Notes: generated from the letters alone by a model not told the origin. A stretch of 64,000 nucleotides of DNA from Corallococcus exiguus (GCF_965139275.1 NZ_CBCSLE010000005.1); one strand, 5' to 3'; counted from the stretch's first letter, positions 17,401 through 46,300 are shown. A program made the numbers and translations.

Positions 17401-18229
17401 GTCGCTGCGCGTGGGGCTGGGGACGGTGGCCAACGTGGGGGAGGGCGTGCTCACGCGGTTGCTCCAGGTGCCGTTGGATCCGCAGCGCTCCGCGTCCGCG
17501 GGCGAGCTGCTGGCCCAATCGATGGACGACGTGCGCGCGTTGGTGCGCGTGGACAATCCGCTGCCCGCGGTGGGGGGGCGCGACGCGGAGTCGCTCGACT
17601 CCATTCGCTATCGTGCACCGGCGGGTGTGTCGCAGCCGCTGTCCGCCGTCACGGTCGACGACTACGTGCGGATGCTCCAGCAGATGCCGGAGGTGGCGGG
17701 GGCCTCGGCGCGCGCCGTGGACCGGGACCTGCGCACGGTCATCCGTGTGACGGTGTTGCTGCGCGACGAGGACACGCTCGACCGCGACGAGCTGCTGCGC
17801 CGATGGGCGGGGGTGCGCAGTCGCCTGGAGGAATTCCGCCTGCTGGGCGTGGACGTGGAAGCGCTGCCGCCCAAATGGGTGCCGCTCGACTTGGACCTGG
17901 AGGTGGATGCCTCGCCGCATGCGCAGGCCGACCAGGTGCGCGACGCGGTGGTGGGCGCCATCGCTGGGGACGGCGGCCTGTTGGATCCGGACCGCTCTGG
18001 CCTGAACGGCGATGTGCAGCTCGCGGACCTGTACCAGGCGGTGCTGCGCGTCCCGGGCGTGACGGCGGTGCGGGTGAAGCGCTTCCGCCGGCTGGAGCCC
18101 CAATCGCAGGAGCGGCTGGAGGCGGGCGTCATTCCCATTGGACCCGACGAGGTGGCCACTGCTCGGGGTGGTTACTGGCCGGGTTCGGAAGGCGTCCTCA
18201 CCGTGCAGGTGTGCGGAGGGCTGCGATGA
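14462..18229 (+). CDS. Baseplate_J (gp6/gpJ-like) wedge protein with approx 500-aa N-terminal parallel beta-helix-like repeat extension (1255 aa)
   Basis: Central DFTTMLLEAVAAQLDSLAYQQERAVVEGFLEDARLRRSVEDHARGLDYVPDPGLSATVMLRF matches the Baseplate_J motif. N-terminal region shows approx 22-residue repeats (V.V.L.G..V.V..V.V). GTG start overlaps the gp25 stop (GTGA). Confidence 0.7.
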   Translation: MSARVLTLPLEASLAEAQAALETTPPGEVEWVLPVGEGVLTADFVIGTPAHALRLTGGPGVTLKLDGGTLEVTGLVTGLSGVTVVALDAGLVLLGARVEVSDVTVSATASGDCAAMSVETPDGTVVIDSLTVTQAKGEVATGLRLLATEARVTGLSVDGVRATVGEAFGVRAVCQRSQWADVSVRNVMGMEMGVGLELAGFTHADLSGLTVSQVSGPNATGARVLVAREEGEGLSMVDVSVSEVDAFGVQWSIGLLVASAGALQVRGFTVQRVQGGFPMGVLALGGRSIEVAMGQVEDVSAGTRATGMRVLGGPSLEPVVVRDVEVSRVSAAPVPVSAQPEASWSDWLIAALDALSASVVGPLTLPAFPTDADVVGLHVAAPLGGLEPVLDVGTPGEIAIEDCSLFVITGTALQLEGGLRTALVRRTEAWTSVHAGWLQAEQLLLAQLTWHRHAHGLRLGPGEIRAYDSLFTAIVGAPFVLEPDAELSASPALFAQGAAPPFLEVGPLPYRTPGTPEVPPVLLTGGLPPPETVDLRLVPDAAISRAAVPVPGDGPRDPAPFIGAWAPDVVPGCDVRDPQPRPWLAAPERPAPGALVDYQARDAQSLLAVMLERARTVMAPWEDRGPADFTTMLLEAVAAQLDSLAYQQERAVVEGFLEDARLRRSVEDHARGLDYVPDPGLSATVMLRFRLDPEALAALVKARLDELNLSVLPPGTTALEFLTGGGVLEIPAETLVANVSTDEHSLVFVTESPLSYFPRLEIVTLAESVQPGDTGATLAGLYPELDPGRWLILYRGRGESGHVVRVTSVALATDTTFVGWDPRRFAPEVFLAPGDPAPGPRATVLGNVVPAHHGLPVTPLPEGFEADSAEPFARSLAQWRALLSPVVDGSEEREFALPFHPVSVQAFGYPLPEETSRRGTPQLQVSVEDDPWTLVDDLSVQGPGDEVFVLRATPTGGASLRWGDGVNGAVLPPRETTLGLSLRVGLGTVANVGEGVLTRLLQVPLDPQRSASAGELLAQSMDDVRALVRVDNPLPAVGGRDAESLDSIRYRAPAGVSQPLSAVTVDDYVRMLQQMPEVAGASARAVDRDLRTVIRVTVLLRDEDTLDRDELLRRWAGVRSRLEEFRLLGVDVEALPPKWVPLDLDLEVDASPHAQADQVRDAVVGAIAGDGGLLDPDRSGLNGDVQLADLYQAVLRVPGVTAVRVKRFRRLEPQSQERLEAGVIPIGPDEVATARGGYWPGSEGVLTVQVCGGLR

Positions 18230-20742
18230 GCCGCGTTCCCTCCACGCACCAGGCGCTGACGCATGAGCAGCTCCGCACCCGGCTGGGCGAGTCGGCGCGC
18301 ATCGTCTTCACCCGGCTGGACGAGGCGCCCACGTGGAATCCGCTCGCGTACGCGGCGCCATCGTCGGTGGACCTGGGGCGGGGACTGCTGGACAGCGTGG
18401 CGCTCGCGCTGCACGTGCTGTGGACGTATCAGCAGGCGTGGGCGGAGGAGGGCTTCCTCGCCACCGCGCGGCTGGAGGACTCCGTCTCCAAGCTGCTCGG
18501 GCACATCGGTTATCGGCCGAGTCCGGGCACCGCGGCGGTGGGGCTCCAGCACTTCCGCTGCAAGGCGAACGTGCGCGGCACGCTGTCGCCGGGAACGGCG
18601 GTGAATTCAGCGGCGGAGGGGGAAGAGACCGCCGCTGTGTTCGAGACGCTCGCGTCGCTGCGCCTGCTGCCGGAACTCAACGAACTGCGTGCGTTCCTGC
18701 CTCCTCTGGTTGGAGCGGGGACAGGAGCTGGAACCGGGACGGAGACGGGCGGAGGAGCGGGAACAGGTGGAGGCACGGGGACGGGTGGTGGGACCGGTGC
18801 GCCTTCCGGCGAGGCGGGTGAGCCAGGGGCTCCGGCTCCCACGGGCGGCATCTTCGGGCCCGGCTCGGTGGTCGCGGGGCTCCAGGATCGCATCGAGGTG
18901 CAGCGCCACGGTCCGCTGGAGGAACGGCAGGTGGCTCGAGCGAAGCAGGATGCTCGCAAGCTGGCGTCGTTGATGAAGACGTTGGACCTGGGCGGGGATG
19001 CGGCGTGCAAGAGCACGCTGGACGCGCTCTGCGAACAACTGTGCGAGGCCCAGAAGGTCGTGGCGCAGGCCGTGCCTCCGCCCGGCCGTCCCGTGGGTGC
19101 GTTGTCCGAGTCGCAGGAGATCCTCGCCCGCCAGCTCCGCAACTTGCAGAAGCGGCAGGCGGACGCACTGGCCGCGTTGGAGGAGGCGCTGGCCCCGTGC
19201 GCGGACGAGGACCCGGCCGTGCACGCGGTCCGGTTGGACAAGATGGTCACGTTCCTGGATGCCTTCGTGAACAGCCTCATCCAGGAGGCGCGGGATCAAC
19301 TCGTCATCCTCAAGGGCAGTGAGGCGCTGAACCGGGCGGACCAGGCCTTCGGCGCGGACGCGGGAGTGGCCCGGCCGTTGGGCGTGGCGGCATCCGGTAC
19401 GGACACGCTCTATCTGCTGCCGCTGACGGATGCCTCCGGGCTCACCTCGCAGGAACCGCCGGTGCGGCCGGGAGACTGGTTCGTGCTGGCCGAGGACGTG
19501 GAGCGTCTGGGCCCCGGAGGCGCGAAGGGCACGGAGCGGATCTACCGCGAAGCACTGCGAGTGCTGCGTGTCCGCACGGAGGTTCCGCCCGGCCAGCGAA
19601 CGCCGATGACGCAGGTGACGTTCCAGCCGCCGCTGTCGCGCGCGTACGCGTTGGACGGCGTGGTGCTGCTGGGAAACAACACGCTCGTCAGCGAGGGCTC
19701 CACGGTGGAGGAGGTCGCCGTGCCTTCGCTGGATCTGCGCACGGTGTCGCTGCTGCATGGGCCGGTGACCTGGCTGCGCGACCCGAGCCGCGCGGGAGGC
19801 CGCCGGCCGGAGGTGTCCCTGACGGTGGGGGGACGCGCGTGGCATCCGGTGGATTCTTTGTTGGACGCCGCGCCTGATGAGCTGGCCTTCGCGGTGGAGT
19901 CGCTGCCGGCCGGGGCCGCGCGGCTGCGCTTCGGGGAAGGGGACCACGGTTCGGCGTTGCCCCTGGGCACGGAGGTGCGGGTCCGCTACCGGGTGGGCAG
20001 AGGGACGGGAGGCAACCGGGCCGCGCTGCGGCTGCTGGCGATGGCGAGCCCGCATCCCTGCGTGGAGAAGACGTTCAACCCGCTGCCGCTGGCCGGAGGA
20101 ACGGATCCGGAGGCACCGGCGCTGGCGCGCGTGCGAGGGCCCGCCACGGTGGGCGCGATGGACCGCGCCGTGTCGCTCTCGGACGTGCAGGCGCTGACGT
20201 TGGTGTTCGACGGCGTGCACCGCGCGAACGTGTTCCGGGATGGCGTGCGCCGCCGTTCGTTGAAGGTGGTGGTGGCCGGGCCGGAAGGAGCAGCCCTGGG
20301 CGCAGCCGATCTGGAAGAACTCCACGCGCATCTGGCGGCACGGGTGGCGCCGAAGGTGGAGCTGAACCTGATCAACCGGCAGCGTGTGGAAGTGCGGCTG
20401 CGGGTGCTGCTGCGCGTGGTGAAGGGGGCTGATCCGGTCGCGGTGCTTCAAGAGACGCGCCTGCGGCTGGGCGTGGACCGAGACCCGGAGCGTGAGCCTG
20501 GTCTGCTGGATCCGGATCGCGTGGAGCTGGGACAGGATCTGCAGCTGTCGGACGTATACGGCGCGCTCGCGGAGATCACGGGCCTGCGCTCGGTGGTGGT
20601 GCAGCGGCTGCATCGCGAAGGCACGCCGCCAGCACTCTTCGAGCGCATCGTCACCGCGCCCGGCGAGCTGCTCGCCTGGGCCCCGCCGTCCGGAGAAAGC
20701 GATGGCGTCGCGCTCACCTACGAGGAGGCCCAGGATCTATGA
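18226..20742 (+). CDS. Second Baseplate_J-family paralog (gp7/Afp12-Pvc12-like), 838 aa, with internal Gly/Thr repeat linker
   Basis: LLDSVALALHVLWTYQQAWAEEGFLATARLEDSVSKLLGHIGYRPSPGTAAVGLQHF is again a Baseplate_J-type motif. GAGTGAGTGTETGGGAGTGGGTGTGGGTGAPSGEAGEPGAP low-complexity linker at approx 19130-19270. ATGA overlap with the previous gene. Confidence 0.65.
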   Translation: MSRVPSTHQALTHEQLRTRLGESARIVFTRLDEAPTWNPLAYAAPSSVDLGRGLLDSVALALHVLWTYQQAWAEEGFLATARLEDSVSKLLGHIGYRPSPGTAAVGLQHFRCKANVRGTLSPGTAVNSAAEGEETAAVFETLASLRLLPELNELRAFLPPLVGAGTGAGTGTETGGGAGTGGGTGTGGGTGAPSGEAGEPGAPAPTGGIFGPGSVVAGLQDRIEVQRHGPLEERQVARAKQDARKLASLMKTLDLGGDAACKSTLDALCEQLCEAQKVVAQAVPPPGRPVGALSESQEILARQLRNLQKRQADALAALEEALAPCADEDPAVHAVRLDKMVTFLDAFVNSLIQEARDQLVILKGSEALNRADQAFGADAGVARPLGVAASGTDTLYLLPLTDASGLTSQEPPVRPGDWFVLAEDVERLGPGGAKGTERIYREALRVLRVRTEVPPGQRTPMTQVTFQPPLSRAYALDGVVLLGNNTLVSEGSTVEEVAVPSLDLRTVSLLHGPVTWLRDPSRAGGRRPEVSLTVGGRAWHPVDSLLDAAPDELAFAVESLPAGAARLRFGEGDHGSALPLGTEVRVRYRVGRGTGGNRAALRLLAMASPHPCVEKTFNPLPLAGGTDPEAPALARVRGPATVGAMDRAVSLSDVQALTLVFDGVHRANVFRDGVRRRSLKVVVAGPEGAALGAADLEELHAHLAARVAPKVELNLINRQRVEVRLRVLLRVVKGADPVAVLQETRLRLGVDRDPEREPGLLDPDRVELGQDLQLSDVYGALAEITGLRSVVVQRLHREGTPPALFERIVTAPGELLAWAPPSGESDGVALTYEEAQDL

Positions 20743-20858
20743 GCCCCGCCTCGACGCGCCCGACCGGCCCCCGCCCCAGGCCCGCGGACATGGGGTCAGT
20801 CTCCGTGGCTGAGAAAGAGGGAACCCTGCGGGGACTCCCGGCTGCGGCGCACCGCATG

Positions 20859-20996
20859 AACCTGTCCGACAGTCGGACAGGATTAAAGGACCCAGGCCGG
20901 GGACCTCCGTGCCAGCCGAGCCGTGAAAACCTGTCCGACAGTCGGACAGGTTTGGAGGACCGAGGCGGGGGACCTCTGCTCCAGCCGAGCAGTGAA
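20859..20996. repeat. Two tandem approx 69-bp repeat units, each starting with the perfect palindrome CCTGTCCGACAGTCGGACAGG (20861-20881 and 20930-20950)
   Basis: Direct comparison: unit 1 aacctgtccgacagtcggacaggattaaaggacccaggccggggacctccgtgccagccgagccgtgaaa; unit 2 aacctgtccgacagtcggacaggtttggaggaccgaggcgggggacctctgctccagccgagcagtgaaa. Lies in the 361-bp intergenic gap inside the CIS operon. Confidence 0.7.
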
Positions 20997-21103
20997 AGTT
21001 GGGACCGTGTCGGGCGGAAGGTGCACGGCACTGATGTTCGGGCGCTTGGCGTGGCGCGTTACGGCGTGGCCGCGACGCTTCCGGTCGTGGAGGGGCAGGC
21101 CCC

Positions 21104-24100
21104 ATGAGCCCTCCTTCTCAGCGGCTGAGCCAGCTCCTCCCGGGTCTCTACTCGGCGCGGGACTTCACGCTCGCGGATCAGCCGCTCCTCAAGCTGCTCG
21201 CCGTGCTGGGCATGGAGCTGGATGCGTTCGCGCGCGCGGTGGATCAGCTCTGGGATGATCATTTCGTGGAGCGTGCGGGTCCGCAGGCGCTGCCGTTGCT
21301 CGCGGAGTTGATGGGCGCACGGCTGATCACCGACGACCCTCGCGTGCAGCGCGGTGTGGTGGCTCGCGCGGTGGCGTGGCGCCGACGGAAGGGCACGCTC
21401 GCGTCGCTGGAGGAGGTGCTCTCCGTCACCAGCCTCTGGGATGCGGAAGTGGACGAGTCCTTCCGTTCGCTGCTGGAGACCCAGGACCTCAACGACTTGC
21501 TGCCCTGGCGCGGCCGCAGCGCGGTGATGTGGGATCCCATCGGCCTCGCGGATCCGCTCACCCGCCGCTCGCCTGGCATCGAGCGTCCCCGCGATGGTGT
21601 CCCGGAGCGTGGCCCGTTCATTGGCATCGCGCCGGGGGAGACGCTGGACCAGGCCTTGCGTCGGCTGGGGAGCGCGGATGCGGGCCGTGTCGCCGCGACG
21701 CCGCGCACGTTGGATCTGCTGGGCTGGGCGCGTCCCGATGTCGCCCTCATCCGCACCGCGCGCTTGACGCTCGTGGAGTTGGAGGAAGTCACCCCGGCCA
21801 CCGTGCTCACGCTGCCCAACGGTTACCGGGGCTTTCGCGTGGATCCACTGGACCGCGATGGTCCCCTGGTTTGGCTCAAGCCTCTGGAGCGCGCGGATCT
21901 CACTGGAGGCCTCACTGCTCGCCATGAGCCCGCGCCTCCGTCGCTCGTCACGGGACGCACGGCGGCGATGCTGCTCACCCCTACCTCGCTGGCCGAGGAC
22001 GCCGACGCCGCTGAACGCGCGGATGCCATCACCATCTCTGTCGACGGCATTCCGCTGGTGGGTCCGGAGTCCCTGCCGCTCCTGCGCGGACCCCTGCCCA
22101 CCGCACCCGTGGGGCCCGCTCCCACGCTGCGCTTCGCGGACCGGGGCAGGCCTTCGCCTGGAGACACCTGGCGACTGACGCTGCTGGCCGCGCGTGAGAA
22201 CTCGGACACGGTGCTCCTGTCCACGGAACTGGTGTCGGACGCACTGAACGCCGTCACCGTCTCGCCGGAAGCGAACCAGCTCCTGGGCGGCACCACGGCG
22301 GCGTTGCTCGTGGAGCGGGTGAGCGGTGAGCCGCGCCTGCGCGACGTGGACGGAACGTGGCGCACCCTCACCGTGGGTCTGCGCCAGGGGCCTCCTCGCA
22401 GCAATGCCATCCGCGTGGACCTGGCCGGTGCGCCGTGGGTCGCTCGCATCGAGCAACACCTCGCGGATGGCAGCCTGCGCCTTGCCCGCTTCGACGCGAG
22501 CGCTGACGGTGCGCCCTGGCAGGTGGCGGAGCTCATCGGCGCGTTGCCTCCAGACGGTCCAGGCATGTCCCTGGCCATCGCTGGTGACGCACTGTTGCTG
22601 GTTGCGCCGGACGGCACGGGGAAGCTGGGCGTGTGGTCGGTGACGGGCCTGGACACCGCGACTCCGACGGGGACGCGGTTGGACACCGCGAGCCCACGGC
22701 AGCCCTCGGCGCGACTGGCTCCCAGCCTGTGCGTGCGCGGCGGCCGGGTCTTCGTCTTCGGCGGTGACCTGGGCGGTGCGCCCACTGGAGACCTCTGGTC
22801 GCTGCCGGTCACGGGCGGACCGTGGCGGCCCCATGCGGTGCGCAACCGCCAGGAGCGCAAGGCCGCGACGCTGCTGAGCACGGCACAAGGACTGATGCTC
22901 GTGGGCGGCGAGGCCGTGACGGGAGAACTGGCCGTGCCGGTGATGCTCTGTGATCCGGCCTCCGCGAGCCCTGTCTGGCGCCCCCTTGCCCCACTGCCCA
23001 TCACCGCGAACCTGCCCGGCACGCTCGTGGCAACCACCACCGCCGACGGCGTGGAGGCGCTCGTCTGGGCGGACACGACGCGTCCTCAACGGATGACGCT
23101 GAAGGCAGGCGAGGATGCCTGGGTCGCCGGACTGCTGGAGGCCTCGGGGACGAACCCGCCGGTTCCGGGCGAAGCGCTGTACGTCGACGGGCGCGTGCTC
23201 CTCACGGATCCGGCGCCGCTGCCCGCGTCGGAGGTCGTCTTCTCACTGGGCGGGCGGGGCTACCTGGCCTTCCTGCCAGAGTTGGCCCTGCTCCCGGATG
23301 AACTCCTGCGTTTCAACGTCGCCAACGACGGCGCCGCGTTCATCGAGCCTCGCGAGGGCCAGCCGCTCCCGCTCGATTCCCGGCCCGGTGGTGCGTACCA
23401 CTCGCGGGATGCTTCCGTGGCCGGCGGTGCGCGGCGCTACTCGGTGCCAGGACGGCTGAGTCGCCACCCGTTCCAGCTGCGCCAGCGAAGCCTGGGCCCG
23501 TGGACGACGCTCGCTCCGAGCATCGCCTCCGGCATCGTCGCGGTGGATCCACGCCTGGGCCGCGTCGTGCTCCAGGACGACGCACCCGTGGGCCGCGTCA
23601 CCGTCTCCGCGCGGGTAGGGCGGGGCGCCTCATTGGGAGCGGGGCTGCTTCCGCCGGACCGCCGTCCGCCCGCCGCGTGGGCGGAGCCGGACTTCCCATT
23701 CATCGATCCGCCGGACCGTCCTGGCGACCGCTCCGGCGCCGGCCTTCCTGTCACCGCGTGGATCTCCCCGGAGCGCGCGGGCGGAGTGCTGGCGGCCGGA
23801 GGCCAGGAGCGGCCCATCGTCGCCACCGTCGCGGATGGACTCCAAGCCGTAGCGCTTCCGGCGCTGGCGACTGGAGGCCAGGCGCGCCCCATCGTCGCAA
23901 GCGGCTCGCCGTCGGTGCTGACAACCGGAGGCCAGGCACCGACGGACATCGTGAACGTCACGGAAGGAAGCCCATCCGGATCACCTCCGGTGCTGGGCCT
24001 CATCGGTTCGCCGCGCCTGGCTCCAGAGCGTCTGTCACAGGGGCTGGACAACGGGCTGTCCCTCTTCGCCGCGGACACGGGCGCGGCGCCCTGCATCGGC

Positions 24101-24874
24101 GCGGACGAGCACGGCCTCTCGTTGGCGCTCTACCCAGGCTTCGGAGGCAGCGCGGCCACGCGCGTGTGGCTCGCGGGTCTGTGGCTCGCGGGACGGCTGG
24201 ATCTGGTGCTCGCTCGGGGGCAAGCGGATCTGCGCTGGTGCAACCTGGGCGTCCCCGGACAGGTGGGCCTGTGGATGCCGGGCGGTGGGCACCAGGACAT
24301 CAGCGCGCGGCGTTCGCTGCCTCCCGCCGACGTGGAGCTGCGCCTCTACGGCTGCATGGTGGGCGCCATCGAACTGCCGCCCTGGGTGCACCTCATCGCC
24401 GCGGGCTGCACCTTCGACGCCGGAGACCGCGACGCCGTCGCCATCCGAGCGGCGGGCGCGACCGTGCGACTGCGGCACTGCACGGTGCTCGGGGCCACGG
24501 AAGCGGGCGTGCTGGAGGCTTCCTCCTGTGCCTTCGCGGGCGAGGTGCGCACGGACCGGCCGGACCTGGGCTGGCTGCGCTACAGCCTCCTCGCACGCGG
24601 CGGACAGCCTCCGGTGTCGCACCAGTCGCGGGTGCACACCGTGTCCTTCCAGTCGAACCGCCAGACGGACCCGGGCTACCTCGTCCTGGGCGACAACAAC
24701 GGCCCCGACGCGCTCCACGCCTCCGAGCGCGGCGGAGTCCCCGGTGCCCACGACGAGCGCTCCGACCACGAGCGCGAACTCTCCGCGCGCACCGACGACA
24801 GCATGCCCATTGGCATCACGCCCTTCCACGCCGACCGCAGCCAGGACGACCTCGTTCGGATGAGCCGACCATGA
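21104..24874 (+). CDS. P2 gpI-like baseplate/fibre-attachment protein N-terminus fused to a long C-terminal extension containing Kelch/galactose-oxidase-type propeller repeats (1256 aa)
   Basis: N-terminus LLPGLYSARDF...LLAVLGMELD...VDQLWDDHFVERAGPQALPLLAELMG...AVAWRRRKGTLASLEEVL matches the Tail_P2_I family (LLPP...RRKGT). Later PSLCVRGGRVFVFGGDLGGAPTGDLWSLPVTGGPWRP is Kelch-like. Confidence 0.65.
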   Translation: MSPPSQRLSQLLPGLYSARDFTLADQPLLKLLAVLGMELDAFARAVDQLWDDHFVERAGPQALPLLAELMGARLITDDPRVQRGVVARAVAWRRRKGTLASLEEVLSVTSLWDAEVDESFRSLLETQDLNDLLPWRGRSAVMWDPIGLADPLTRRSPGIERPRDGVPERGPFIGIAPGETLDQALRRLGSADAGRVAATPRTLDLLGWARPDVALIRTARLTLVELEEVTPATVLTLPNGYRGFRVDPLDRDGPLVWLKPLERADLTGGLTARHEPAPPSLVTGRTAAMLLTPTSLAEDADAAERADAITISVDGIPLVGPESLPLLRGPLPTAPVGPAPTLRFADRGRPSPGDTWRLTLLAARENSDTVLLSTELVSDALNAVTVSPEANQLLGGTTAALLVERVSGEPRLRDVDGTWRTLTVGLRQGPPRSNAIRVDLAGAPWVARIEQHLADGSLRLARFDASADGAPWQVAELIGALPPDGPGMSLAIAGDALLLVAPDGTGKLGVWSVTGLDTATPTGTRLDTASPRQPSARLAPSLCVRGGRVFVFGGDLGGAPTGDLWSLPVTGGPWRPHAVRNRQERKAATLLSTAQGLMLVGGEAVTGELAVPVMLCDPASASPVWRPLAPLPITANLPGTLVATTTADGVEALVWADTTRPQRMTLKAGEDAWVAGLLEASGTNPPVPGEALYVDGRVLLTDPAPLPASEVVFSLGGRGYLAFLPELALLPDELLRFNVANDGAAFIEPREGQPLPLDSRPGGAYHSRDASVAGGARRYSVPGRLSRHPFQLRQRSLGPWTTLAPSIASGIVAVDPRLGRVVLQDDAPVGRVTVSARVGRGASLGAGLLPPDRRPPAAWAEPDFPFIDPPDRPGDRSGAGLPVTAWISPERAGGVLAAGGQERPIVATVADGLQAVALPALATGGQARPIVASGSPSVLTTGGQAPTDIVNVTEGSPSGSPPVLGLIGSPRLAPERLSQGLDNGLSLFAADTGAAPCIGADEHGLSLALYPGFGGSAATRVWLAGLWLAGRLDLVLARGQADLRWCNLGVPGQVGLWMPGGGHQDISARRSLPPADVELRLYGCMVGAIELPPWVHLIAAGCTFDAGDRDAVAIRAAGATVRLRHCTVLGATEAGVLEASSCAFAGEVRTDRPDLGWLRYSLLARGGQPPVSHQSRVHTVSFQSNRQTDPGYLVLGDNNGPDALHASERGGVPGAHDERSDHERELSARTDDSMPIGITPFHADRSQDDLVRMSRP

Positions 24875-39389: not shown

Positions 39390-40117
39390 ACGCACTTCCT
39401 CCAAGACAGCGATTGGGCCACCTGCTGCGCTCCCTCGCGAAACAGCTTCCGGACCAGCTCGACGGCCTGTTGGAGAACGCCCGGTTCCGGGACGGCGCCT
39501 CGGCGCTCCAACGACTGGCGGATCCGGCGCACGTGGAGAAGGCCCTGGAACGGATGTCGCCAGAAGAAGCCGGCTGGCTCGCGGACCTGCTCACAGAGCG
39601 CTGGTCCTGGATCGCGGACGTCCAACTTGAGCCCGAAGTGGCCATCGTCGCGCCAGACGAACTCTGGCTGGGCGCGGAACCCATCCGCGTGCCGTTGTCG
39701 CTCGCGGCGGTGGGGCTGGACGAAGGATTCGAAGCGGTCTGGGAAGGCGCGGTCCTCCCAGGCCCACCCTCGGCCAGTGCCACGCTCCTCGCGAGACCTC
39801 CCGAAGACAAGACACCCGGAGTCGCCCGGGTCCGCGCCCAGGTCCGAGCGAGCGTGAAGGGTCAGCGCTGCGTGCTCATCGCGCAGGCGCAGGTCACATT
39901 GAGGCGCCCGTCGGTGGTGGTGAGCGACGACCGGCGCAGGCTGCTGGTCCAGGACCACACGGGACGCCCGGCCGTGGGCTGCCGTCTGGAGATTGGCCCG
40001 GACGTGCACCTCACTGGCGCAGGAGGCCTGGTGGACCTGGAAGTCCCAGCGCAGCCCGGTGTGTCGCTCAAGCTGGAAGGCATCCCCGCCGGACGCATTC
40101 CCGGAGGCAACCCATGA
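39386..40117 (+). CDS. Hypothetical 243-aa protein
   Basis: ATGA-coupled. GC3 bias. Confidence 0.5.
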   Translation: MNALPPRQRLGHLLRSLAKQLPDQLDGLLENARFRDGASALQRLADPAHVEKALERMSPEEAGWLADLLTERWSWIADVQLEPEVAIVAPDELWLGAEPIRVPLSLAAVGLDEGFEAVWEGAVLPGPPSASATLLARPPEDKTPGVARVRAQVRASVKGQRCVLIAQAQVTLRRPSVVVSDDRRRLLVQDHTGRPAVGCRLEIGPDVHLTGAGGLVDLEVPAQPGVSLKLEGIPAGRIPGGNP

Positions 40118-40335
40118 AGACAATGACGTCCCAGACGCGGAAGACACCCGACCGCAAGCCCGCCATGAACAAGGCCATCGCGCCGTCGCAGCAGCCCAAG
40201 ACGGACACAGCCAGGGCCCAACTGGGAACCGCGGCCAAGGGGCCCACGATGAAGGCCGCGGCTGGCGGCAGCTTCAAGGCGAAGAGCGCCCCCCGAGTCA
40301 CGGCGAACCCCAACATCCGGATGCCAAAGAAGTAG
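40114..40335 (+). CDS. Small 73-aa Lys/Ala/Pro-rich basic protein, last gene of plus-strand operon
   Basis: ATGA-coupled. Strong GC3 bias despite low complexity (MKTMTSQTRKTPDRKPAMNKAIAPSQQPKTD...). Confidence 0.45.
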   Translation: MKTMTSQTRKTPDRKPAMNKAIAPSQQPKTDTARAQLGTAAKGPTMKAAAGGSFKAKSAPRVTANPNIRMPKK

Positions 40336-40413
40336 CCCGCCCCGACTCGACGGACGAGGACAGTGGCCGGTGGCTCCACGGGGAACGGGCCCCGGGCCTG
40401 CGGCCTCGGGAAA

Positions 40414-40434
40414 CCTGTCCGACAGTCGGACAGG
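40414..40434. repeat. Third copy of palindrome CCTGTCCGACAGTCGGACAGG, located between the convergent 3' ends of the two CIS operons; bidirectional terminator candidate
   Basis: Exact 21-bp match to the copies at 20861 and 20930. Flanked by aaa...ttt. Sits in the 209-bp gap between 40335(+ end) and 40545(- end). Confidence 0.65.
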
Positions 40435-40544
40435 TTTGAGGCGCTTCGTCCCCGGAGGTGGCCGCCGGCCTGAAACTCCCCGCCATCCCAGGGGGCCCAG
40501 CTTCGTGCGCGGCAGTCCCGGCGTCCTCGCACTGCCAGTCAGCT

Positions 40545-42059
40545 TCAGGAGGCCAGCACCCACCGCACGGCGCCCACCCCCGCCGACACCTCGCGGCGCG
40601 AAGCGCACAGCGGCTGTTCCCGTCCCCCGCACAGCAGTCCCGCCCGCGCCCACTGCGGAAGCGAAGCCACGAGCTTCTCCACGCCCCAGGGGGAAGCCCG
40701 CGTAGCCCCGTCGTCCCGCATCGAATTACCCCAGGGGAACAGCCGCCCATCTGGCCCACGGGCCGCCATCTCCCATTCCTCGCTGGAGGGCAGCCGCAGC
40801 GCCACGCCTTCAATGCGTGACAGCGCCGAGCACAGCTCCTCTGCCTCCACGAGAGTGCACGGCAGTGGTTCCTCCGCGTCCGGCCCCGCGGTCCCCATCG
40901 GCCCCTGTGAAGCCGCCATCGCCCAGGCCGCCGCGGCCCGGCTCACGGGTACCCGAGCAACGAAGAACCCCGGAGACATCACCCGCCGCAGCGTCGGCCC
41001 TGTCCCCAGCCAATGCTCCACCGGAGGCACCCAGCGCGCCTCCAACCCGGACCGGCGTAGTCTGTACGTGCCGTCCCGTTCCACCACTGCTTCGGGCAGT
41101 CCCACCGGGCGCGGCCCCGGATCCACCGGCGTCGTGAGCGCATGCAACAGCAGCGTGGGGTCGTCCCGAACATCCGCGGGACCCGACAGCGCGCGCAGCA
41201 GCGGAGCCATCCGCTCGCGCTTCGGTGAGCCCTCTGGAGGCAGCGGCCGGCCCGCGAGCACATGGACCACCAGGTCCCGCAGGTTCGAATAGAACTGCCG
41301 GTCCCTCGGGTCCGCGCCCTCCCGCGTCGACGTAGGCATCCGAGCCTCGCGCAGCGCCGGAAGCACCTCCCTCGCCTGGAGCCGGGCCGCCGCCATCACC
41401 GCCGTCACCCGCACCTCCGCGTCCGCGTCCACCAGCGCGGAGCGCAGCACCGCGTCGACGTCCGGATTGGACGCCGCCTGATCATGGATGAGCCAGCGCA
41501 ATACCTGCCGCCGCTGCTCCTCCCCTGGCAGGTGCGCGAACAGCACGGAGCGGTCCGGGTGCGCCTCCTTCTCCGCCTTCAACCGCGCGAACGCTTCCTC
41601 CGTCCCATCCGGCACCAGCGACGCCAGCACGCGCTCCGCGGTCCGAGACACGCTGAACTCCGGATGGAAGCGCAGCGCCGCCACGCGCTCCATCGACGAG
41701 CGCTCGCGCAGCGTCTCCGTGGCCAGTAACCCCAGCAACACTTCCCGCGTCTCCGACGAAGCCAGCAGCGCCGCGAGCGCCGGGGCCTCCATCACCGGCA
41801 CCGCCTTGCGCACGGCCACCCATTCCCCCACGGCGTCAGGTCCGGAGAACTCCAGCACCCGAAGCCGGAGCACCGGGTTGAACGTGTAATGGATCGCCGA
41901 GTCCGTCCCGCGCTTCACGTACACCGCGAACTCCGGCTCGCCTGGGATGAGCGGAGGCGTCTGGCTTTCGGACTGGAGGAACCAGCCCAGCGCGGACAGC
42001 ACCCGGTCCATCACCTCGAAAGAAACCTCAGGCCGGGCGACAAGGGCAGGGGAGCGCAT
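40545..42059 (-). CDS. HEAT-like N-terminal repeats plus C-terminal FGE-sulfatase (SUMF1/formylglycine-generating-enzyme-like) domain protein
   Basis: C-terminal RLPSSEEWEMAARGPDGRLFPWGN matches the FGE-domain core motif (RLPTEAEWEYAARGG...YPWGN). Last gene of the minus-strand CIS operon. Confidence 0.6.
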   Translation of the reverse strand: MRSPALVARPEVSFEVMDRVLSALGWFLQSESQTPPLIPGEPEFAVYVKRGTDSAIHYTFNPVLRLRVLEFSGPDAVGEWVAVRKAVPVMEAPALAALLASSETREVLLGLLATETLRERSSMERVAALRFHPEFSVSRTAERVLASLVPDGTEEAFARLKAEKEAHPDRSVLFAHLPGEEQRRQVLRWLIHDQAASNPDVDAVLRSALVDADAEVRVTAVMAAARLQAREVLPALREARMPTSTREGADPRDRQFYSNLRDLVVHVLAGRPLPPEGSPKRERMAPLLRALSGPADVRDDPTLLLHALTTPVDPGPRPVGLPEAVVERDGTYRLRRSGLEARWVPPVEHWLGTGPTLRRVMSPGFFVARVPVSRAAAAWAMAASQGPMGTAGPDAEEPLPCTLVEAEELCSALSRIEGVALRLPSSEEWEMAARGPDGRLFPWGNSMRDDGATRASPWGVEKLVASLPQWARAGLLCGGREQPLCASRREVSAGVGAVRWVLAS

Positions 42060-42829
42060 CAGGCCGGTTTCACGAGCGCATGCAGCGACTCACCCACCCG
42101 CGCCACCGGCCGCCCCTCCACGCCCACGAAGTACGCCCGAGCCGCCCAAAGCAGGTCACTCCACGAGACCTGCTCCGCGGCCTTCTTCTTCGGAAAGCCC
42201 TCCACGAAGGACTCCCACGCGGGCCGCACCGCTTCAGACGGTGCCCCGACCTTCATCGCCGTCGCCAGGTAGCGCACGAAGCCCTGGACGTTGAAGCCGA
42301 ACTGCTCCCCGGGCGTGAGCGTCGCCGGAAGCGTCCCACCCCCCACCAGCTTCGCCGCCAGGTCCGGTTCCCCCAGGCAGAGCGCCACCAGCCCGCAGCG
42401 ATAGAGCAACACGTCATCCAGCTTCTTCACCTTCTTCGCCAGGGCCTCCAGCCACGCCTTCGCGGGCGACGCCTGCACCAGCCCCTGCGCGGCCCCGCAC
42501 GCTTCCGCCGCGTTCACGAAGGACAGCACCTGGAGGGCGACTCGCGGCGGATCCACCGAATCGAAGAACCCCCCGGCCTGCTCGATTCCAGCCGCACACA
42601 GCGGCACCAGGGGCGCGGCCGCCGCGCGGGCCTCCTCGGCTCCCGTCAACACGATGAGCGACGCGAGCACATCCGCCAGCGTCCGCAGGTATTGAACGGG
42701 CGTGTTCGCCTTCGTCAGCGCGATGGGCGAGAAGCGCTTCATGAGCTCGCGCGCGTGGGTGTTCTCTCCCCACTCGGCGGAGAAGAGCCCGGCCCAGGTG
42801 CCTGGAACGTTCACGGGGATTCCAGCCAT
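42059..42829 (-). CDS. Hypothetical 256-aa protein
   Basis: GC3 bias. Overlaps the downstream start. Confidence 0.5.
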   Translation of the reverse strand: MAGIPVNVPGTWAGLFSAEWGENTHARELMKRFSPIALTKANTPVQYLRTLADVLASLIVLTGAEEARAAAAPLVPLCAAGIEQAGGFFDSVDPPRVALQVLSFVNAAEACGAAQGLVQASPAKAWLEALAKKVKKLDDVLLYRCGLVALCLGEPDLAAKLVGGGTLPATLTPGEQFGFNVQGFVRYLATAMKVGAPSEAVRPAWESFVEGFPKKKAAEQVSWSDLLWAARAYFVGVEGRPVARVGESLHALVKPA

Positions 42830-42844
42830 GTCACTCCGCCTTGT

Positions 42845-43369
42845 TCACGGCTGCTGCCGTTGCTGGAAGAGGGCCATGTGGTGCTTCCACAGGGCGCGGT
42901 GCGCATCTTTGACGGTCGTCGCGGCGCGCTGCAATCGCTCGAAGAGGCCACCGTCCTCCGCCTCCTCGCGGAGCTTCGAGACGAACTTCGTCTCCGTCTT
43001 CAGCCCCGCATCCTTGCTCCGCTGGAGCCGCGCCAGGTTGCCCGACTCCCAGGCCTCCAGGTCCAGTTCGCGCGCCAACGTCAGCAGCGTGTCCACCTCC
43101 GCCTCCGTGCGGGTGAAGCGCTCCAGGAACCGCTCCACCGTTCCGTATGTCTTCTTCTCCTCCGGCGCGCCGGCCTCGGTGAGCAACAGGCTCTTGGCCA
43201 CGCCCACGTCCAGCTTGGGGATGCTCCGCAGGGGCGCATCACAGAAGGGACAGGCCGACGGTTCCTGGAGGACGGTCCGCCGGCCTCCGGTCAGGTCCAC
43301 CCGGTTGTGGACGGTGAACGTGGAGCCGCACACGAAGCAGGTGACGGAGGTGGAAGGAGCGACGCGCAT
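42845..43369 (-). CDS. Hypothetical 174-aa protein with N-terminal Cys4 zinc ribbon (CFVCG...CPFC)
   Basis: MRVAPSTSVTCFVCGSTFTVHNRVDL...SACPFCDAPL. Helical C-terminus. 12 nt downstream of the giant gene. Confidence 0.5.
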   Translation of the reverse strand: MRVAPSTSVTCFVCGSTFTVHNRVDLTGGRRTVLQEPSACPFCDAPLRSIPKLDVGVAKSLLLTEAGAPEEKKTYGTVERFLERFTRTEAEVDTLLTLARELDLEAWESGNLARLQRSKDAGLKTETKFVSKLREEAEDGGLFERLQRAATTVKDAHRALWKHHMALFQQRQQP

Positions 43370-43381
43370 GTCGGAACCTCA

Positions 43382-46300
43382 TCATGGAGGAGGCCAGCGG
43401 GGCGGCAAGAGATCGATGACGCGGCGGCCGAAGCTCTCCGCGTCCGTTTCAATGGGCTGCCGGAAGTACCGGGGGTCTCCCGGCCCGTAGTAGTGGCCGC
43501 CGGAGCCAGGCAGGTTGCGCCACCACCGGCGTGAGAACGGATGCGACTGTCGGCCTATCGAGTACTGGTAGGCCTGATACGCCTGATAGTAGTGACGCGA
43601 CTCATGGACGGCGGTGCCCACCGCGTCGCCCACGTCCAGGTTCTCGTTGATGACGATGACGCCACGCCGGCTCACGGGCGCGAGCCGGCCCTGGTGCGTC
43701 ACGTTGAAGTCCCATTCCATCCATCCGTAGTCCCCAGCCGGCAGGTTCTGGAACTGGACTTGTGGACGGCGCGACCGGGGGATGCCCATTGCGTCCATGG
43801 CCGCGCCCACCGACTTCTTGAGGGCCTGCTGCCGGTCCCGGAGCGACAGCGTGCCGAACGTCGAGGGGTCCAGCTCCGGGATGTCCTCCAGCCCCGCTTG
43901 CAGGTCCCGCATCTGCGCCAGCTCGAAGCGCTTGAACCGGCGGCTGCTCCAGCTGCGAGAGACGGTGATGTCGAAGTCCCCCCAGCCCAGCACATTGCCG
44001 GTGGGACCTATCGTGCGAATGCGCTTCGCGGTCTCGAACGGTTCGATGATCCGGGCGATCTCCCCCGGCTTCACGTTCGGGTCCAGGCTGTGGATGAGCC
44101 CCTTCAGCTGTTTGGGATCGATGTTGTACTGGGCCAGCAGGCCTGGCTTGCGCTTCGTGCCCTTGAGCGCTGACTCCACCTTCTTCAGCACCTTCAGCGT
44201 GGCCCCGACGCGGCCCTTCTTCAGCTCGTCCCTGAAGACACCCATCAGGGCATCGAGCTCCGCGCGGGGGGCCGAACCGTGGGGCATGACCTCCCGGACC
44301 AGCGACATCTTGCGCCACGCGTCCGCGATGCGTTCGACGCGGTCGACGAGCTCCCAGCCCGGCGGAGGCATGGGGGTGATGGGCCCCACGCGCAGCTCGA
44401 TGGAGACCCGCCACTCGTCGATGGCCTTGGTCAGCGCCTCCAGGTGCGCCGGCCCCAGGCCTCTCGCCCGGGCCCAGGCCAGGTCCGACAGCTGCGCTTG
44501 CAGGTCGTCCAGGTTCTTGCGGAGGTTCTCTCCCACCGCAGTGAAGTCCTTGAGCCTGGGGGCGTGCTTGCCGCCCTTCACCTCGACCAGGTGGAGCTTC
44601 GCGCTCGTCGGATCCGCGGCGTGGTCGAACTCGACGATGATTTCATCGATGCCACTGCCTTGCTCCGCGCCCCTGGGCTTGAAGTCCAGCCGCCGGAATC
44701 GCTCCGTCGGCCCCAGCCGCTCGCCGAGCAGCGCCTCCGTGAACGCCAGGGATTTCTGCTTCTCCACCACCTCGCCCGCCTCGGTGGTGATGAAGCCGCG
44801 CGGCTCCCAGCGATTGCCGGAGCGCTTGGACAGGATGAGCTCGATGTATTCCGTCTCACCGCTGGCGCGCGTCACCTCCACCAGCTTGTAGTAGCGGAGC
44901 TCCTTGGGGCGGTACTTGACCTCCTGCCACGCGGGGCCGATCTGCGCCACCGTGTCCGACGGATCCAGCACCAGCGTGGTGCGCGCCCGCTGCGCGTCGG
45001 TGAACACCTGGCGCGGCGCGCTCTTGATGAACGGGTCATCCAGCTCCGGCCCCCCCTTCGAGAACGGCCCCACCTCCGGGTGGTCGGCGTGGAGCACGGT
45101 GTTGGGCCACACGTCGTTGGGCCGGCCTGACTGCCGGATGACCGGCTCCGTGTCCGTCACGGTGAGCACCAGGGCCTTCTTCTTCCCACCTCCGCGCGTC
45201 GTGACCGCCGGCGGCTTCGTTTCCGGAACGACCACCTCCGGTGGCTTCGCCGGGGTGAATTCCATCTCCAGCTGCCTGGCCCCCTCCGCCTCCGGCGGAG
45301 GCACGGGCGGTTTCTTCTTGCTGAACAGCCGCGGAGGCTCATTCAGGTACTGCGGCTTCGAGCGCACGCCCTGGCCGAACTCCGCCATGTCCAGGGGCGT
45401 GAAGGCATCCACCTCCTTCATCCGCTGGCGCAGGTTCTCCAGCGTCTTCTTGCCCTGCCGGATGCGGCGGGTCGCCTCCTCCGGCTCCATGGACACGCCG
45501 CGCTTGCCCTCCAGCGACGTGAGCAGCGACTCCTGCGCATCGATCTCCAGGAGCAGCTTCTTGCGATAGAGCTCGAACTGCTTCTCGATGGGCAGCTTGT
45601 CCCAGTGCCGCAGCGCCCGTTCGTCCAGGGCCTTGATCAGGTCGCGCGTCGCCTTGTCGTGGCGCTGGAGCAGGTGCAGGCCCTCCTCGCCCAGGTCGGA
45701 CAGGTCCGCGCCCGCCTTGACGATGATGGTGGGCTTGCCGCGCCGGAACATCGTGACGGCCTGCGCGGACTTGCTGCCGGTGAGGGCTTCGAAGTCCGCC
45801 TCGGAGATCAGCTCGATGGGCGTGTTCGCGAACGCCTTTCGCTGCGCGGGCGGGATGTGCTCCAGCAGCTCCTTGCGCATGGCGCGCTGGAGCTGCTGCC
45901 GGTCGAAGTCGCCCGACATCTGCTTGAGCAGGCCCTCGTCGAACTCGCGCAGGAACTCCTTCATGTTCCCGGCGGGGTTCTCCGCCTTCCACTTCTTGAA
46001 GAGGGTCAGCCGCTCCTTGGGCGTGCCCCGGAAGTTGAGCAGGTCCTGGGTGCGCGGTGGCACGTGGGGCTTGGAGATGCCGCCCAGCGCGCCCAGCCCT
46101 CCGGCCATCACCGCGCCCGGCGCCGCCTGCAGGGCGGTGCCGGCCAGCACGTTGAAGAGCGCGTTGCCGCCCTTGTAGTTCGCGTCGTTGAGGACGTTGC
46201 CCAGGAACGCGGAGGGCACGGACTGCGCCAGGCCTTCCGCGCCCTGGGCCAGGCCGTGCGCCGTCATCCGCGCCAGCACGCCGCCTTCCTCCGCCATGCG

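Follow-up and report, generated by a model that had tools for sequence, protein, structure and literature searches.

The DNA analysed here is a stretch of 64,000 nucleotides from Corallococcus exiguus (GCF_965139275.1, NZ_CBCSLE010000005.1), hereafter the window, which carries genes of a contractile injection system (CIS) and, between two of them, a repeated palindrome. Three exact copies of the 21-mer CCTGTCCGACAGTCGGACAGG are present, at 20861-20881, 20930-20950 and 40414-40434, the places given in the preliminary description of this DNA, against a chance expectation of 0.01 matches; all three have A as their central base when read on the plus strand. The stem of the 21-mer, ten base pairs on either side of that single base, is the core of a longer perfect palindrome of 25-27 bp, AAACCTGTCCGACWGTCGGACAGGTTT. 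The full 27-mer AAACCTGTCCGACAGTCGGACAGGTTT (AAACC...GGTTT) is perfect at 20927 and 40411 and carries two mismatches, at outer A/T positions, in the copy at 20858. No fourth copy of the 27-mer is present in the window even when six substitutions are allowed, so that the palindrome is confined there to two places.

The first two copies lie within the 361 bp that separate two plus-strand open reading frames (ORFs). The upstream CIS gene (17803-20742, 979 amino acids), delimited from the ORF list and its orthologs, gives no Pfam match; the downstream CIS gene (21104-24874, 1256 amino acids) is Tail_P2_I-like, or gpI-like. The length originally assigned to this intergenic gap is correct, but the gap is not empty: a plus-strand ORF of 122 codons at 20739-21107, here called the bridge ORF, fills all of it, its ATG overlapping the upstream stop and its TGA the downstream start, with the sequence ATGA at both ends and the TGA of the left ATGA serving as stop codon of the upstream gene. 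Reading along the plus strand, the gap opens with a diverged, locus-specific duplicate of the downstream gene's 5' end (ATGAGCC..., 20739-20770), homology to the repeat family at other loci starting only at about 20771-20786. There follow a 'leader' repeat body (TGAGAAAGAGGGAACCCTGCGGGGACTCCC...GCACCGCATGAA, 20771-20857), palindrome copy 1 (20858-20884, with the outer AAA/TTT imperfect as GAA...ATT), the body of the first tandem unit (20885-20926), palindrome copy 2 (20927-20953), the body of the second unit, with which the array ends (20954-20997), and a 'trailer' (GTTGGGACCGTGTCGGGCGGAAGGTGCACGGCA, 20998-21040). The last feature (21082-21107) is a Shine-Dalgarno-like GGAGG with the right-hand ATGA, a kept duplicate of the ancestral junction. 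Tandem Repeats Finder resolves 20859-20997 into 2.0 copies of period 69 (87% matches), in keeping with the approximately 69-bp units of about 85% identity first described. Leader, unit bodies and trailer recur at many unrelated loci, the leader in blastn matches ahead of arrays (including loci L006, L052, L074, L089, L026, L096, L092, L017 and L054) and the trailer 3' of arrays (L054, L050). A short-read (Logan) contig of the downstream gene starts at about copy 2, an assembly break at the repeat of a typical kind. A single terminator-like feature was called in the gap, a leader hairpin, GGGAGTCCCCGCAGGGTTCCC, followed by the T-rich tail TCTTTCTCAG; it lies on the minus strand (20839-20819) and is oriented opposite to operon transcription.

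Comparison of orthologous loci reveals the same gene junction in both filled and empty states. Four orthologs lack any gap, the two genes meeting through a stop/start overlap of ATGA or GTGA (L126, L127, L128 and the locus of P0018); they come from C. sicarius, Corallococcus sp. ZKHCc1 1396, a metagenomic relative (58% identity) and a further relative (60% identity). Six junctions are filled, with gaps of 229 bp in C. caeni, 361 bp in this window, 451 bp in C. exiguus locus L122, 457 bp in C. interemptor, 487 bp in Corallococcus sp. AB011P and 814 bp in C. coralloides DSM 2259. The filled gaps hold between one and five palindromes, at spacings of 53, 69, 104, 140 or 153 bp, and their contents differ by species; L122, for instance, has two more units after position 20997 of the window, a 90-nt difference. 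The insert is restricted to a clade in which the downstream protein shares at least 89% identity with that of the window, the C. exiguus ortholog being 97% identical. The empty junctions in orthologs indicate that the insert is secondary and lineage-specific and that the junction itself is ancestral. As judged from these alignments, the CIS array is thus a secondary, turned-over insertion and no mark of joined modules: the preliminary description, which had suggested a REP- or MITE-like repeat (repetitive extragenic palindrome; miniature inverted-repeat transposable element) at sites of module joining, was right about the kind of element and wrong about the joining, since the repeat entered a pre-existing junction in one lineage.

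Along with the insertion, the junction was duplicated. At its left end some 30 nt of the gap echo the start of the downstream gene, or the empty-site sequence, with 24-27 of 37 positions identical (shuffle P from 0.026 to 0.0005), and the last 20 nt or so keep GGAGG...ATGA, reading GGAGGGGCAGGCCCCATGA in the window and GGAGGCGCAGGACCTATGA at empty sites; upstream of this GGAGG...ATGA stretch, similarity is not significant (P = 0.06-0.3). From the comparison of filled and empty sites the duplication measures at least about 45 bp, long for a target-site duplication, and no terminal inverted repeats of the MITE kind were identified. Between the window and L122, whose gaps are 93% identical, the centre of the first two palindromes (20861 and 20930; 2168 and 2237 in L122) is A in one and T in the other, which suggests flipping of palindrome centres or conversion between units.

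The variability of the insert does not extend to its reading frame. From left to right ATGA the six filled orthologs measure 237, 369, 459, 465, 495 and 822 nt, all multiples of three, and the frame that couples the two genes contains no stop in any of the six; the remaining two forward frames hold 1-6 stops each, and among the 30 non-coupling frames of the six orthologs eight are open. Dinucleotide shuffles return an open frame with probabilities of 0.26, 0.116, 0.082, 0.081, 0.053 and 0.004. Alignments between divergent gaps contain mutually compensating indels of 1, 2, 8, 10, 16 and 43 nt, and the palindrome itself is read differently by species, as NLSDSRTG or as PVRLSDRF. The bridge ORF of the window has G+C contents of 0.72, 0.63 and 0.73 at the three codon positions, a third-position (GC3) signature that is not of the coding type, and its product has no Pfam match. 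Given this frame-variant reading, the non-coding GC3 and the lack of a Pfam match, what is conserved is the openness of the frame and not the peptide. Selection for translation across the insert, keeping the coupled start of the downstream gene, would probably account for this. Arrays internal to operons in general were also considered as being held open in the sense frame; genome-wide they show no difference between sense and antisense, and the claim of a maintained open frame is accordingly limited to the CIS locus.

The repeat is by no means peculiar to CIS genes. A scan with CCTGTCCGACNGTCGGACAGG against contigs, one genome per species, returned at least 120 stretches, nearly all from Corallococcus, with a few from an uncultured 'delta proteobacterium' metagenome-assembled genome (MAG), Archangium, Myxococcaceae MAGs and Hyalangium; loci were taken as 8-kb blocks around matches, and any total given for a genome is a lower bound or an extrapolation. 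The 120 listed loci contain 162 exact copies of the 21-mer, with A at the centre in 90, T in 71 and G in one. On the 10.1-Mb chromosome of C. exercitus SDU142 at least 38 blocks span 0.9-9.0 Mb, with at least 58 exact copies and at least 105 with no more than two mismatches. Counting the further clusters within each block gives about one per 52 kb, which extrapolates to some 190 clusters per genome, so that two clusters in a window of 64 kb are about as expected. The preliminary description had placed the palindrome only at CIS module boundaries, which holds for the two places within the window and fails genome-wide, and it had named hundreds of unrelated sites as the observation that would overturn its proposal; that is essentially the picture obtained.

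Across loci only AA(A), the 21-mer and TT(T) are conserved, the flanks splitting into several sub-families. Most copies are intergenic; with a crude GC3-based gene caller, 27 clusters fall between convergent genes, 40 between co-directional and 17 between divergent ones. Clusters range from a single palindrome (83 clusters) up to 12 at two mismatches or fewer and 13 at three or fewer, spacings of 69-73 bp being common. The longest arrays, in C. coralloides and C. exercitus, are L034:619-1768 (13 palindromes), L116:6452-7089 (10) and L052:792-1382 (9). The L034 array region, about 1.27 kb as the cluster with 60-nt flanks, has one sense frame entirely open and no open antisense frame. In the MAG CAVYSY01 (e.g. 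L009, L015, L020, L047) the core is centred in a near-perfect palindrome of about 70 bp, CCTCCCGGGCGCGCTTTTCAAAAA-core-TTTTTGAAAAGCGCGCCCGGGAGG. Viral contigs yielded no copy of the palindrome, and Rfam, searched with the whole window at gathering thresholds, no match. In the literature, so far as its searchable coverage, which is incomplete, extends, we met no description of this repeat or of a myxobacterial REP, MITE or RAYT (REP-associated tyrosine transposase).

Copies also occur inside coding sequences, the palindrome being without stop codons in all frames. A polyketide synthase (PKS) gene has a single unit in C. carmarthensis (L048:5510) and an array in C. coralloides KYC2213 (L051:1605-2186), where about 8-9 palindromes lie in frame between the ketosynthase (KS) and ketoreductase (KR) domains, at a usual spacing of 72 bp (24 codons), and read ...NLSDSRTGL..., the same frame as in the window. 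Comparison of the two genes presents this as a repeat expanding within a PKS coding linker. Nonribosomal peptide synthetase (NRPS) genes contain exact or near-exact single copies in frame (L091:3851, L093:7357, L085:3257); two of these stand directly ahead of the adenylation-domain motif NLAYVIYTSGSTG and one in a condensation-domain region, and they may have arisen by insertion or by conversion.

Clustering of the coding-like ORFs of the 120 loci yielded one family lying directly on palindromes, which Pfam identifies as GntR (E = 1.5e-14). By tblastn a family gene is present in 23 of the 120 loci, of which the SDU142 chromosome supplies 11; the window contains no FadR/GntR gene. In each of the 23 a palindrome is positioned 59-91 nt upstream of the ATG, at 87-91 nt in 17 and at 59-62 or 72 nt in the others, and about half of the family loci have a second copy some 930-1350 nt downstream. 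The upstream site was likewise found in all 11 loci that could be retrieved through another exact copy, an independent ascertainment. In alignments of the otherwise diverged upstream regions the 27-mer is the sole invariant block, and on the gene strand its central base is A in 19 of 23 loci (p = 0.003). A site fixed near -89 and perfectly kept across paralogs of 55-80% identity, in DNA that has otherwise diverged, argues for purifying selection there. DNA homology between paralogs runs from -210/-270 to +880/+1130, delimiting a discrete single-gene module without a conserved neighbour.

The family comprises 381 clusters at E <= 1e-10, of which the best 120 all come from Corallococcus, several from C. 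exiguus and at least 16 from a single chromosome. Residues 1-235, a winged helix-turn-helix (wHTH) and a helical domain, are highly conserved and are followed by a disordered Pro/Ala-rich tail and a C-terminal helix. The profile search against PDB sequences returned the wHTH domains of PdhR, NanR and FadR, and the AlphaFold model matches, over their full length, solely regulators of the FadR subfamily (top 50 matches all at probability 1.00), while every NCBIfam match falls below its equivalog cutoff. Of the 117 family proteins retrieved solely through homology, 112 have the recognition-helix motif. The family protein is a dimeric regulator, not a transposase. Its tail motif GNLSDCRTG is the translated palindrome, the 3' copy lying in the coding tail of the gene; among the same 117 proteins NLSD[CS]RTG is found exactly in 16, with at most one substitution in 38 and with at most two in 56, compared with none of 163 controls. 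Most paralogs (P0164-P0283, alignment columns ~470-500) end in a conserved amphipathic helix, GRWAARLWRFIAHSLGxPAS, and invariant Cys and His residues of the helical domain (H86, C115, C116, C131, C146, H166) suggest a metal or ligand site. P0202 and P0220 are annotated as VOC-family proteins of 529-562 amino acids in which glyoxalase-type Pfam domains are fused to the GntR domain; they may be fusions, or mis-called starts arising from open repeat sequence upstream. In the MAG CAVYSY01 a GntR gene accompanies none of 16 loci.

The operator consensus of the FadR subfamily is NyGTM-N0-1-KACNy, the GT-AC spacing being typically 3 nt (PMC4494728). The 21-mer fits it twice, as TGTCCGACA and AGTCGGACA (GTC-C-GAC and GTC-G-GAC), with centres 8 bp apart, and the central A or T sets which 11-bp sub-palindrome (CTGTC-N-GACAG) is perfect. 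Taken together, the doubled FadR core, the invariant upstream site and the copy in the coding tail make it most likely that the palindrome is the binding site of this expanded FadR/GntR family and, in its many copies, a proliferated operator. The earlier idea of a dimeric transcription-factor operator is, unexpectedly, supported as to the origin of the sequence; nothing links it to regulation of the CIS.

The interpretation we consider probable is that of a dispersed Corallococcus palindrome derived from a FadR/GntR operator, of which the window copies are orphans and whose CIS insert persists as an in-phase ORF. The operator would have spread genome-wide, both singly, as 'orphan' copies, and in tandem arrays. 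The CIS pair would represent one insertion, with duplication of the junction, into the overlapping (ATGA) and translationally coupled boundary between the two genes, where it presumably landed by chance in the ancestor of the coralloides/exiguus/interemptor/caeni group. The array may afterwards have expanded, contracted and turned over, the survivors being those variants with a single stop-free, in-phase ORF from upstream stop to downstream start. Ribosomes would then cross the insert and reinitiate at the kept GGAGG-ATGA, an arrangement matching that of interspersed repeats in mycobacterial operons, and the bridge peptide would be a by-product. The copy at 40414 would be a separate insertion into a convergent intergenic region.

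Several observations weigh against this interpretation. Divergent regions, which bear promoters, hold no more of the orphan copies (17) than convergent regions do (27); this absence of promoter enrichment, together with decay of single arms and only marginal similarity to GntR flanks, argues against a designed regulon of orphans. The window copies share 44-49 of 90 flanking positions with GntR-linked sites, true module copies sharing about 69 among themselves, and the notion that they are recent relics of GntR modules was rejected on these figures. The sample of upstream sites was drawn from loci selected for carrying the palindrome, and the one DNA test free of that bias, a metagenome scan for GntR relatives, yielded no confirmed locus. 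Repeat arrays are stop-poor in both orientations (on average 1.43 open frames per cluster in sense, 1.68 in antisense), so that the open-ORF signal is partly intrinsic to the repeat, and the six filled orthologs are related by ancestry and not independent.

The alternative with most in its favour, although we think it improbable, is a purely selfish REP- or MITE-like element moved by a transposase encoded elsewhere, such as a RAYT, the GntR copies having been inherited and the likeness to an operator being coincidental. High copy number, a mostly intergenic location and tandem clustering are what such an element would display, as are an insertion polymorphism with duplicated target, orphans that are not enriched at promoters and a centre that is almost solely A or T (90/71/1). 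Most variants, moreover, are decayed forms of a dominant master sequence in which one arm alone has changed. On the other hand, a tblastn search with an approximate Escherichia coli RAYT query through the 941 kb around copies found no credible RAYT-like ORF, itself a weak test (a lone weak match in L072 proved to be noise when the ORFs were translated); the stem is perfect rather than imperfect and lacks the GTAG/GGAG head; and neither the fixed -89 position, with perfect conservation across diverged paralogs, nor the twofold fit to the FadR consensus would be anticipated. Less probable still is a bolder version of the operator interpretation, in which palindrome and FadR/GntR gene form a new self-propagating module, a regulator rather than a transposase being flanked by its own site, which colonised the genome. 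Were it true, hundreds of orphans would be bound by dozens of paralogs of near-identical specificity, with genome-wide roadblocks, decoys or regulation as the outcome, and this binding layer would touch the CIS operon, PKS and NRPS genes and many others.

Explanations at the level of RNA or peptide fare worse. A general RNA element in the manner of enterobacterial REPs, its hairpin stabilising upstream mRNA or blocking 3' exonucleases wherever it stands, is doubtful: the perfect 10-13-bp stem, the many copies past gene ends (27 convergent clusters and many tandem) and compensated variants, for example CTGG...CCAG at the counterpart of 40414, agree with it, yet most variants disrupt pairing, the sequence itself and its A/T loop are kept across genera, and the place upstream of GntR starts is fixed. 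Conservation of structure through covariation was rejected, compensated sub-families being few and small beside the one-sided mismatches. A long hairpin specific to each copy was rejected too: real arms form 17.7 cross-arm pairs as against 19.9 for arms swapped between copies and, since swapped arms pair no worse, the conserved module is the core only. The attenuator, terminator or processing site first proposed for the CIS, an RNA hairpin (terminator, attenuator or RNase site) setting the ratio of baseplate to fibre-module transcripts, is very improbable. The RNA of the gap does fold better than shuffled sequences (z = -3.29), and the sites lie inside an operon and at an operon end; but sister species with the same CIS have the junction empty (C. 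sicarius and ZKHCc1, besides the two distant orthologs), palindrome number varies from one to five with variable content, and PKS and NRPS loci, regulator loci and many unrelated ones carry the same element. Nor is there a canonical terminator: all three window copies fail the intrinsic criterion of a stem and at least five T in eight, having merely TTT after the stem, and canonical promoter and terminator scans of both window sites and one GntR upstream region gave nothing at the palindromes. The open in-phase ORF favours read-through over termination. Hardly credible is a functional CIS repeat protein encoded by the 122-codon ORF. In its support the frame is open in six species and the 78-amino-acid version of C. 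caeni is annotated as a gene; against it stand, beyond the GC3 and Pfam results, its absence from sister species, the differing frames in which the palindrome is read, local frame-shifting indels and a length varying from 78 to 273 amino acids. A CRISPR array was also dismissed, the 'spacers' being homologous between units (87%) and between loci, with no Rfam family match.

The third palindrome (40411-40437) is the perfect 27-mer, apparently an independent orphan copy, and lies, as originally stated, between convergent gene ends. On the plus strand an ORF of 73 amino acids (40114-40335), called as a gene in orthologs L130 and L131, stops 76 bp before it; on the minus strand an FGE-sulfatase/SUMF1-family gene (40545-42059; Pfam PF03781 and homologs) ends 108 bp past it. 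At the orthologous site of C. exercitus the palindrome is the variant CTGGTCCGACAGTCGGACCAG, with two changes per arm, doubly compensated (CTGG...CCAG) and hence still perfect. The loci retrieved from C. macrosporus and C. interemptor, in which gene order 3' of the FGE gene differs, contain no palindrome; L129-L131, compared with the window, likewise differ by species in gene order beyond that gene. The minus-strand operon that converges on copy 3 (40545-51394) encodes the FGE-sulfatase/SUMF1-like protein, which has HEAT repeats, two small conserved proteins and a protein of about 2,600 amino acids with weak annexin-repeat matches.

These results remove a tempting reading: the palindromes do not mark boundaries of CIS modules, and neither regulation of CIS stoichiometry nor another CIS-specific function of the repeat is supported. 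They offer instead a concrete instance, open to test, in which the binding site of a bacterial transcription factor would have multiplied in the manner of a mobile element, the regulator that it flanks having expanded to dozens of paralogs. The series of six species in which an array within a 4-bp gene overlap is kept free of stops provides a system for studying how translational coupling constrains operon evolution, and in-frame growth of an array inside a PKS linker is worth specialist attention. In practical terms, such repeats break short-read assemblies and can be mistaken by annotators for CRISPR arrays or small genes.

In kind the repeat is ordinary, a dispersed palindrome comparable to REPs, to mycobacterial interspersed repetitive units (MIRUs) and to Rickettsia palindromic elements (RPE). 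RAYT genes are flanked by REPs (PMC3184786), and with the REP/BIME-RAYT systems it shares a short, GC-rich palindrome in high copy, mostly extragenic and often clustered, and a gene flanked by its own palindrome. It differs in having a perfect stem with AAA/TTT where REPs have an imperfect stem headed by GTAG or GGAG, in that the flanked gene is a FadR/GntR regulator without catalytic domain and not a Y1 transposase, in having many paralogs per genome as against one RAYT per REP family, and in the position of the 3' copy within the coding tail. MIRUs are described as tandem units of 40-100 bp inside operons, polycistronically transcribed, with filled and empty sites and ORF ends overlapping the neighbours (PMC3184786, citing Supply et al. 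1997). The 69-bp units between co-directional operon genes, and the ORF at 20739-21107 overlapping both neighbours, show just this arrangement, whereas phylum and sequence differ and the perfect palindromic core, the convergent and divergent sites and the link to a regulator belong to the present repeat; we treat MIRUs as an analogue and not as a family to which it belongs. The open-frame property was tested at the CIS locus only. Palindromic repeats such as RPE are tolerated in frame inside protein genes (PMC3184786), as are the copies seen here in a PKS KS-KR linker, in NRPS domains and in the GntR tail, although RPE measure 105-146 bp and are not arrayed while the unit of the present element, 27 bp with a variable body, is able to grow into an in-frame array. 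Operators of the FadR subfamily resemble it in their consensus palindrome, in a site upstream of the regulator's own gene and in a regulator combining a FadR-type wHTH with an all-helical domain. Unlike them, the putative operator described here contains two overlapping cores within a perfect palindrome of 21-27 bp, is GC-rich and not A/T-rich, and exists in hundreds of copies, including arrays and intragenic ones. What is unusual is thus the presence of a FadR-type regulator family where a transposase would be expected, and a MIRU-like bridging ORF kept across an insert that has itself been turned over.

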